A stretch of DNA of 5,486 nt from a virus. Under the pieces are notes generated by a model that saw only the letters and a list, made by a program, of their open reading frames with translations, had not been told where the DNA came from and ran no database searches. Within the stretch, counting starts at the first letter, position 1, and every line of letters begins with the position of its first letter. The position numbers were made by a program, and so were the translations under genes. The DNA lies in the IMG/VR virus record IMGVR_UViG_3300045988_171758, positions 1-5,486 of that record. One strand, given 5' to 3'. Of the stretch, positions 4,124 to 4,242 are shown piece after piece.

Positions 4124-4151
4124 TATATACCCCCTAAAGGTACATTTTTGT

Positions 4152-4191
4152 ACCACTATTCCGACGTATTACTACTTGTCGGAATAGTGGT
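4152..4191. promoter_or_regulatory. Perfect 14-bp inverted repeat (accactattccgac ... gtcggaatagtggt) with a 12-nt loop (gtattactactt), immediately upstream of rep. Candidate double-strand origin/nick hairpin or Rep operator. An adjacent small hairpin ggtaca-tttt-tgtacc lies at 4139-4154.
   Basis: Seen directly. Rep_trans initiators nick in the loop of a hairpin, and the loop here contains TAATA, which resembles the pT181 nick region. Confidence 0.45.
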
Positions 4192-4242
4192 TCAGGGAAC
4201 GCGCCATATTTATAGAGCGAACCCCGAACCACAGAAAGAAAA

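Follow-up and report, generated by a model that had tools for sequence, protein, structure and literature searches.

The window analysed here is the whole of a 5486-nt circular contig (IMG/VR record IMGVR_UViG_3300045988_171758), the genome of a gut inovirus of about 5.4 kb in which nearly all genes lie on the minus strand. The 119-nt gap between the gene of a single-stranded DNA-binding (SSB)-like protein and the replication initiator gene rep (4124-4242) is read, with a probability of about 0.8, as a pT181-like double-strand (plus-strand) origin of rolling-circle replication belonging to an inovirus with a Rep_trans initiator. This was one of two roles offered in a preliminary description of the same stretch, and it is the one that the comparison with relatives favoured. 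In silico, the repeat in the gap is non-random, the neighbouring Rep presents the predicted fold and the catalytic motif of Rep_trans enzymes, and the hairpin, its loop, its strand, its adjacency to rep and its spacing to a second repeat are conserved while the stems covary. Judged from the sequence, the origin is best read as a hairpin that is nicked, an adjacent repeat that putatively binds Rep and an accessory repeat further upstream. The cut itself is placed between T4171 and A4170 of the minus strand, a position held with somewhat better than even confidence; nicking, its exact position, the binding of Rep to the small repeat and the extrusion of a cruciform are predictions. The origin is of the expected plasmid-like kind and not a new type of element, and knowledge of rolling-circle replication is unchanged by it.

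The core of the gap is a perfect 14-bp inverted repeat with arms ACCACTATTCCGAC at 4152-4165 and GTCGGAATAGTGGT at 4178-4191, seen in the sequence and returned by the repeat finder, and extendable to 17 bp with one mismatch (4149-4165 / 4178-4194). On the minus (rep-sense) strand its 12-nt loop reads AAGTAGTAATAC and contains the TAATA that had been likened to the nick site of pT181, where the sequence reads CTCT'AATAG; when the strand is folded as single-stranded DNA (ssDNA), GTAA forms the apical loop. The hairpin precedes the rep ATG by 29-68 nt. When the whole genome was shuffled 200 times with dinucleotides preserved, the longest perfect inverted repeat with a loop of 3-30 measured 6-12 bp and in no case 14. 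The palindrome had been called by far the longest of the genome; it is the longest, but "by far" overstates its lead, other perfect repeats reaching 12 bp (4772-4800) and 11 bp (698-723).

Two more repeats flank this core. The small ggtaca-tttt-tgtacc hairpin, present where it was first described, overlaps the 14-bp repeat by 3 nt, its centre lies 24 nt 3' of the putative nick, and the putative Rep-binding sequence there is GGTACAAAAATGTACC. It is followed by the ribosome-binding site of rep (AGGGGG, 4135-4130 on the minus strand) and by ATG 4123. The start at this ATG, preferred in the preliminary description, agrees with the rep homologues, all of which begin at the M-x-x-Y-N-K/R equivalent of ATG 4123, and the competing GTG at 4156 does fall inside the left arm of the palindrome. 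The third repeat, absent from the preliminary description, is imperfect and G+C-rich and overlaps the nick hairpin by 5 nt. A G+C-rich hairpin occupies the equivalent position in distant relatives, being GGGGGCAT-AAAA-ATGCCCCC in loci L008-L011, and the ICRI-like position holds GGGGGCGT-AAAT-ACGCCCCC in L027 and TCCCCCGCCC-GATA-GGGCGGGGGA in L013 (L-numbers denote related loci, P-numbers Rep homologues). This upstream repeat may assist the origin as an accessory element or may belong to a minus-strand origin. As ssDNA the whole gap folds into three successive hairpins (z = -5.5).

The conservation of the hairpin was followed in a sample of about 85 loci with Reps 30-93% identical to that of the window, 82 of them with enough upstream sequence. 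The 450 nt upstream of each rep were scanned for hairpins having a perfect stem of 8 bp or more and TAA within the loop, and such a hairpin was found in 78 of the 82 loci, 39-124 nt before rep and always on the rep-sense strand; absence of the palindrome from related genomes, raised at first as a possible objection, is contradicted by this count. The hairpins comprise 28 distinct stem/loop variants with unrelated stem sequences, examples being ACCACTATTCCGAC, CCAATCCGAC, CCCAAATCCAC, GGAAAAACGAC, GGAACTATCCCTAT, AGTGAGGTAATCCTAT and CACTTATTTCACC, and their loops fall into the classes AAGTAGTAATAC, C/TTATCGTAATAC, CATAGTAATAC, CG/CTACTAATA and AGTTGTAAC/T. The only invariant loop columns, in 16 hairpin variants, are T..T-A-A, and TACT-AATA loops carrying the canonical CT'AA were identified in relatives with 35-39% Rep identity. 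Palindrome, loop and small hairpin are invariant in five close relatives, with a compensatory A>C / T>G exchange in L001. A scan for the exact pattern matched only three close relatives among the viral contigs. The genome collection yielded only two loci.

The pairing of the stems was counted in an in-register seed alignment of 10 sequences (A4) and in a model-derived alignment (A5), because shorter-loop variants were out of register in the MAFFT alignment of 16 variants (A3). All cells of the seed (100%) are paired, with double-sided changes at all 10 pairs, which is the outcome of the check on covariation in homologues that had been suggested earlier. Slid controls of the seed alignment were 36-43% paired, and none of 500 shuffles matched the observed values on four of the five covariation measures (for further pair types, 3 of the 500 did). 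Alignment A5, with 28 distinct rows, holds standard pairs in 271 of 271 cells and a single G-U among them; so small a number of G-U pairs fits a palindrome of duplex DNA. A covariance model built from the seed (R1) was run on 463,603 bases, both strands, at E<=0.001. It gave 77 sense-strand matches, spread over 74 loci, of which three have a tandem pair; all the matches directly precede rep, and none lies away from this position in the 463,603 bases. At the same sites the score was about 24 bits on the antisense strand and about 49 bits on the sense strand, and the sole match in the window is at 4156-4187 on the minus strand (49.4 bits).

These results bear on the second role first proposed for the palindrome, that of an operator through which a dimeric repressor or Rep itself would control the transcription of rep. 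Perfect palindromes upstream of genes are typical of operators; the divergent open reading frame (ORF) of 78 amino acids (aa) at 5178-5414 has a strong promoter and is a possible regulator; and the small repeat, GGTACA-N4-TGTACC, is conserved among Reps at least 73% identical, so that autoregulation would be possible if Rep binds there. The variation of the palindrome is however the opposite of what an operator requires, as the arms, which would be the half-sites, vary freely and are unrelated among the 28 variants while the 12-nt spacer with its T..TAA is kept. The difference of 49 versus 24 bits between strands also speaks against a symmetrical site, and no promoter-like site was predicted on the rep strand within 4124-4242. 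The palindromic operator was rejected and is very improbable.

The second component of the proposed origin is conserved in another manner. The small repeat is invariant among close relatives, and GGGTACA-N4-TGTACCC is kept in lineages with 73-75% Rep identity despite different stems in the nick hairpin; more distant Reps are accompanied by other repeat sequences at the same distance. A second inverted repeat centred 22-24 nt 3' of T'AA was identified in 17 of the 28 variants, the corresponding number in shuffled tails averaging 0.46 and never exceeding 3. The 17 spaced repeats represent seven unrelated sequences, GGTACA.., TGGTA.., CGTCA.., TCACAA.., TCATGGGAA.., TCGCA.. and TCACT... With the same script the repeat centre of pT181 lies 22.5 nt from the nick, and the binding site of pC221 is centred 23 bp 3' of its nick (PMC4797284).

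The product of rep is, by profile match and predicted fold, a divergent initiator of the Rep_trans type. Its catalytic motif is R157-L-Y159-D-K161. A profile of 20 homologues matched RepDE in the PDB (4CWE/4CWC, E = 4e-12), with the family motif LRVYDKRxE (RVYDK) aligned to FIRIYNKKQE (RIYNK) and Y159 placed on the catalytic Y191; the active site of RepDE is R189-x-Y191-x-K193 (PMC4797284). All 20 homologues have Y159, D160, K161 and R162, and at position 157 either R or K. The AlphaFold2 model (pLDDT 88.1, pTM 0.83) found as best Foldseek matches 4CWC_A (E = 1.6e-13, TM 0.63), followed by 4CWE_A and 4CIJ_B. The identity between this Rep and RepDE is only about 17%. The next structures in the list were TATA-box-binding proteins (TBP), as expected for the Rep_trans fold, which is TBP-like (PMC13595969). 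The model also presents a C-terminal helical domain (about 206-259) and lacks an N-terminal helix-turn-helix (HTH) domain; in RepDE it is the C-terminal helical domain that reads the ICRIII repeat (PMC4797284). Among relatives, the Pfam Rep_trans scores of P0030 (30.6 bits) and of the Rep of L006 (30.0 bits) are above threshold and those of P0021 (28.0) and P0026 (25.1) just below; 34 Rep homologues were found in a large protein collection, some of them annotated as PF02486. A search of PHROGs gave no match for Rep. Among the replication initiators of filamentous phages, Rep_trans enzymes are described as the most common (PMC13595969).

The nearest known systems are plasmids of the pT181 family. 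Rep_trans and MOB-T enzymes cut at a conserved CT'AA that lies within an inverted-repeat loop (PMC9371924), and oriD of pC221 comprises the repeats ICRI-III, where RepD binds ICRIII and nicks in ICRII, for which cruciform extrusion is required (PMC5775427). The pT181 origin, confirmed by BLAST against plasmids, reads AACCGGCTA-CTCT'AA-TAGCCGGTT followed by GCACA-TACTG-TGTGC. The window shares with these plasmids the Rep_trans fold and R-x-Y-x-K active site, a C-terminal helical domain resembling the DNA-binding domain of RepDE, three consecutive inverted repeats with T'AA in the loop of the middle one, and a short repeat directly after it, 24 nt from the putative nick as against 22.5-23 nt. 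The differences are a stem of 14 bp with a 12-nt loop instead of 9 bp with 6 nt, GT'AA in place of CT'AA, and a replicon that is a filamentous phage of Clostridia and not a staphylococcal plasmid. Besides, the origin of the window lies upstream of rep whereas that of pT181 lies within the coding sequence of its rep, the "replication initiation factor" (PMC5703833). The preliminary description had drawn on pT181 for a nick in a hairpin loop next to the initiator's own gene; the location does not hold as a parallel, and for the same reason the element of the window stands outside the pT181 plasmid family sensu stricto. The conservation is also reversed, the pT181 family having a conserved ICRII and a plasmid-specific ICRIII (PMC4797284), and the close Reps of this phage group the contrary.

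More distant systems share fewer of these features. The MOB-T relaxases (NicK of ICEBs1, RelSt3 of ICESt3 and Orf20 of Tn916) have the PF02486 catalytic domain and CT'AA in the loop of an inverted repeat, and IR1 of ICESt3 is a 7-bp repeat with 12 intervening bases, the loop length of the window (PMC9371924). In these elements, however, the nick serves conjugative transfer besides replication, and the binding site is 68 bp away and read by an N-terminal HTH domain (PMC9371924), whereas the candidate binding repeat of the window abuts the hairpin. The ori(+) of CTXphi, with its initiator RstA, also belongs to a filamentous phage, has several inverted repeats and is accompanied by an RstB-like SSB gene in the module, but it is a 167-bp origin requiring HU and nicked between G and T, RstA is described as an HUH endonuclease and the host is a Gram-negative vibrio. 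The Ff phages (M13/f1) also have an initiator that cuts the viral strand at a hairpin and binds to repeats next to it. The Ff plus-strand origin likewise lies in an intergenic region of a filamentous phage; its nick sequence is another one and gpII is an HUH enzyme of unrelated fold (PMC13595969).

By analogy with the plasmids, initiation in this phage could proceed as follows. A Rep dimer would bind the small repeat (4139-4154) through its C-terminal helical domain, and in the negatively supercoiled replicative form the 14-bp palindrome would be extruded as a cruciform, exposing the loop of the minus strand, presumed to be the viral one. Tyr159 would cut this loop, most probably at GT'AA, and remain bound to the 5' phosphate, while the 3'-OH would prime a leading strand that crosses rep in the direction of lower window coordinates. 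Once a round is complete, the re-formed hairpin would be cut, and closure of the displaced strand would give a single-stranded circle, to be coated by the SSB-like protein or reconverted to duplex.

Several points weigh against an origin at this place or against parts of it. The score of the window Rep with Pfam Rep_trans (PF02486) is only 13.7 bits for a cut-off of 29.6. The motif of the window is GT'AA and not the canonical CT'AA, only T'AA being invariant in the family, and the loop has 12 nt for 6 nt in pT181. In ten of the 28 variants no perfect repeat of 5 bp or more has its centre 22-24 nt from the nick. The hairpin scan demanded Watson-Crick pairs, which biases the result of no wobble and makes it partly circular, and many of the loci are closely related, so that locus counts exaggerate how many independent events there were. 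An element of RNA or of plus-strand ssDNA would be equally compatible with a loop conserved on the sense strand. No report of a mapped origin was found for uncultured gut inoviruses of Clostridia.

An RNA element would be part of the polycistronic ssb-rep messenger, where it would act in attenuation, influence processing or stability or control the translation of rep, with a protein or another RNA binding the loop. The hairpin is probably transcribed, since the flanking genes are co-oriented and no promoter was predicted between them; its loop is conserved on the sense strand, the small hairpin adjoins the ribosome-binding site, and 4184-4195 is complementary to the start of rep at 4115-4126 (repeat I7). 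This last pairing is however broken in L001 (CTGTTCCACTCT) and absent in L008, and a translational switch acting through it was rejected. So was an intrinsic terminator, the stem being followed by ACAAAAATG on the minus strand or TCAGGGAAC on the plus strand; neither hairpin is trailed by a T-run and the terminator scan was silent. RNA helices usually tolerate G-U, whereas the stems are Watson-Crick in all but one of the 271 cells. Rfam at E<=1 returned only the tRNA and a chance miRNA match, and no known RNA family for the hairpin. In L006, which has a different Rep, a near-consensus -35/-10 pair for rep comes after the equivalent hairpin; the hairpin need not, then, belong to the rep transcript and would be outside one begun there. 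The loop motif and the 22-24-nt spacing also fit Rep_trans origins. An RNA element instead of an origin is thus improbable, while a secondary role in RNA beside the origin function is possible.

The genes with which the hairpin travels separate the origin from other elements of the viral strand. Loci L004 and L005 share with the window the stretch 3207-4543, containing the tRNA gene, rep, the hairpins and ssb, and not the morphogenesis genes; the SSB-like gene, upstream neighbour of the putative origin, belongs to the same replication module and is inherited there together with rep and the hairpin. L006 shows the opposite combination, sharing the morphogenesis genes (83% identity) and the core of a G+C-rich island (5007-5073, 97%) and not 3280-5006. 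Its Rep is a different Rep_trans of 380 aa, with a hairpin of its own, GGCAGGGG-AGGCTGTAATA-CCCCTGCC. The hairpin therefore follows rep and not the morphogenesis genes, which assigns it to Rep and not to packaging.

In the Ff intergenic region a packaging hairpin, the hairpins of the minus-strand origin and the plus-strand origin stand side by side, and this arrangement is a precedent for another reading, in which the hairpin would not be the nick site but would serve packaging or be the minus-strand origin (sso), recognised by host RNA polymerase or primase. The three consecutive hairpins with their strong folding as ssDNA agree with it, as does the upstream G+C-rich hairpin with an A/T-rich loop containing TATAAAT, which could belong to an sso. 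An sso relies on host enzymes, however, and offers no reason for a T'AA loop resembling that of Rep_trans origins or for a repeat at the ICRIII distance, and a packaging signal was rejected on the inheritance of the hairpin with rep. A better candidate for either function is the island at about 4914-5077. This G+C-rich, non-coding region (4890-5077) is conserved whatever the Rep or morphogenesis module, with 79-82% identity in L004 and L005, is common to genomes with different Reps and is moderately structured as ssDNA (z = -2.9). That the hairpin itself is an element of this sort is quite improbable. The island had also been named as a place where Rep might nick instead; R1 found no nick hairpin in 4890-5100, the core is 97% identical in L006 despite its different Rep, and the candidate was rejected. 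An attachment site (attP) was rejected as well, because in integrated prophages next to an integrase gene (L008-L011 and L090) the hairpin is unbroken and lies in the interior, between ssb and rep.

Some loci contain two hairpins of the nick type in tandem. The pair in L056 (about 2872-2990) consists of a class-A hairpin, AATCCGAC-AAGTAGTAATAC, whose GGTACA repeat is decayed, and after it a class-D hairpin, CCTACTAATA, whose repeat is TGGTA; the adjoining Rep is only 35% identical to that of the window. In L051 (54-152) and L075 (2851-2949) the loops are CTATCGTAATAC and then CATAGTAATAC. Such tandems look like the footprint of a replacement of the replication module at the origin. Prophages with identical Reps differ by an 8-nt tandem duplication in the loop, AAGTAGT-AATTACGT-AATTACGT-GG (L009 7878-7918, L010 3611-3651, L011 2560-2600 and L090) as compared with AAGTAGT-AATTACGT-GG (L008 7561-7593), and one of the three possible phases of the duplication begins precisely at the proposed GT'AA nick.

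Among close Reps, GGTACA-N4-TGTACC and the loop stay fixed and the nick-hairpin stem is replaced altogether. A doubtful extension of the origin reading starts from this: the recognition logic would be inverted with respect to pT181, and the hairpin stem would determine origin specificity or incompatibility among co-resident gut inoviruses. The heterologous tandem hairpins of L051, L075 and L056 would then reflect the capture of an origin and its Rep by recombination at the nick, L056 holding a decayed old origin beside a new origin and a new Rep, and the G+C-rich hairpin, possibly with the tRNA, would supply the minus-strand origin of a compact composite (+)/(-) origin.

The putative origin provides a testable site for one family of gut inoviruses: T'AA in a covarying hairpin, a repeat at 22-24 nt and a covariance model that locates the origin in relatives. 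Its uses include phage annotation, a biologically meaningful start for the genome, minimal replicons or phagemids for Oscillospiraceae and the recognition of exchanges of the replication module. The features of the window are collected in Table 1.

Table 1. Coordinates of the proposed origin elements and of other features of the window (ICRI-, ICRII- and ICRIII-like denote correspondence to the repeats of pC221).
Feature	Coordinates	Strand	Remarks
Nick hairpin (ICRII-like)	4152-4191	-	Perfect 14-bp inverted repeat, 12-nt loop 4166-4177
Putative Rep nick site	4170-4171	- (rep-sense, presumed viral)	GT'AATAC; invariant T..T-A-A and analogy with CT'AA
Small inverted repeat GGTACA-AAAA-TGTACC (ICRIII-like)	4139-4154	strand-neutral	Putative Rep-dimer binding site
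Upstream imperfect G+C-rich inverted repeat	4187-4232 (arms 4187-4208 / 4211-4232)	-	22-nt arms, 77% complementary; ICRI position
Shine-Dalgarno AGGGGG of rep	4130-4135	-	6 nt before ATG 4123; conserved among close relatives (alignment A1)
rep	3287-4123	-	278-aa Rep_trans-type rolling-circle initiator
SSB-like gene (gpV/RstB-like), 80 aa	4243-4485	-	PHROG 929 ("RstB") E = 2.4e-7; PHROG 2866 (ssDNA-binding protein) E = 7e-5
74-aa ORF		-	Heads the ssb-rep operon
tRNA-Gln(CTG)	3207-3280	-	Rfam 55.8 bits
Zot-type assembly ATPase	43-666		
Several small hydrophobic ORFs and one 398-aa protein	window		ORF list

The contig is a closed circle, since bases 1-52 recur at 5435-5486 as a terminal redundancy of 52 nt. 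The repeated segment contains a G+C-rich hairpin between A- and T-runs and resembles a bidirectional terminator after the Zot gene, and a second hairpin of the same type is present at 690-731. The nearest relatives in the databases are "Inovirus sp." genomes from the pig gut, and the more distant ones are prophages in a metagenome-assembled genome of Oscillospiraceae and in an uncultured Clostridiales genome.

A tRNA gene lies a few bases 3' of rep throughout the phage group (L001-L005, L006, L008, L010-L013 and L020-L032), which is unusual for a filamentous phage of about 5 kb. Every relative whose Rep is at least 73% identical carries tRNA-Gln(CTG) at this place, integrated prophages included, in which the gene is internal; L006, with its different Rep, has tRNA-Gln(CTG) too, L013 has tRNA-Gln(TTG) and L012 tRNA-Thr(CGT). 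The conserved gene may encode a working tRNA or may act as a structured ssDNA element, for example a minus-strand origin.

The sole gene of the plus strand is the 78-aa ORF. Its promoter at 5120-5148 is close to consensus (TTGACA-17-TACAAT with TG); three ATAGAAA motifs, spaced by about 21 nt, flank and overlap it (region 5095-5160), and the ORF may be a regulator gene with its operators. The segment 5111-5207 is 82% identical to the "Microvirus sp." record OP549876. On the minus strand, a promoter-like TTGACA-17-TATTTT at 4862-4834 precedes a perfect hairpin of 12-13 bp with a T-run (4800-4772), placed immediately ahead of the 74-aa ORF; this hairpin may be a leader terminator or an attenuator.

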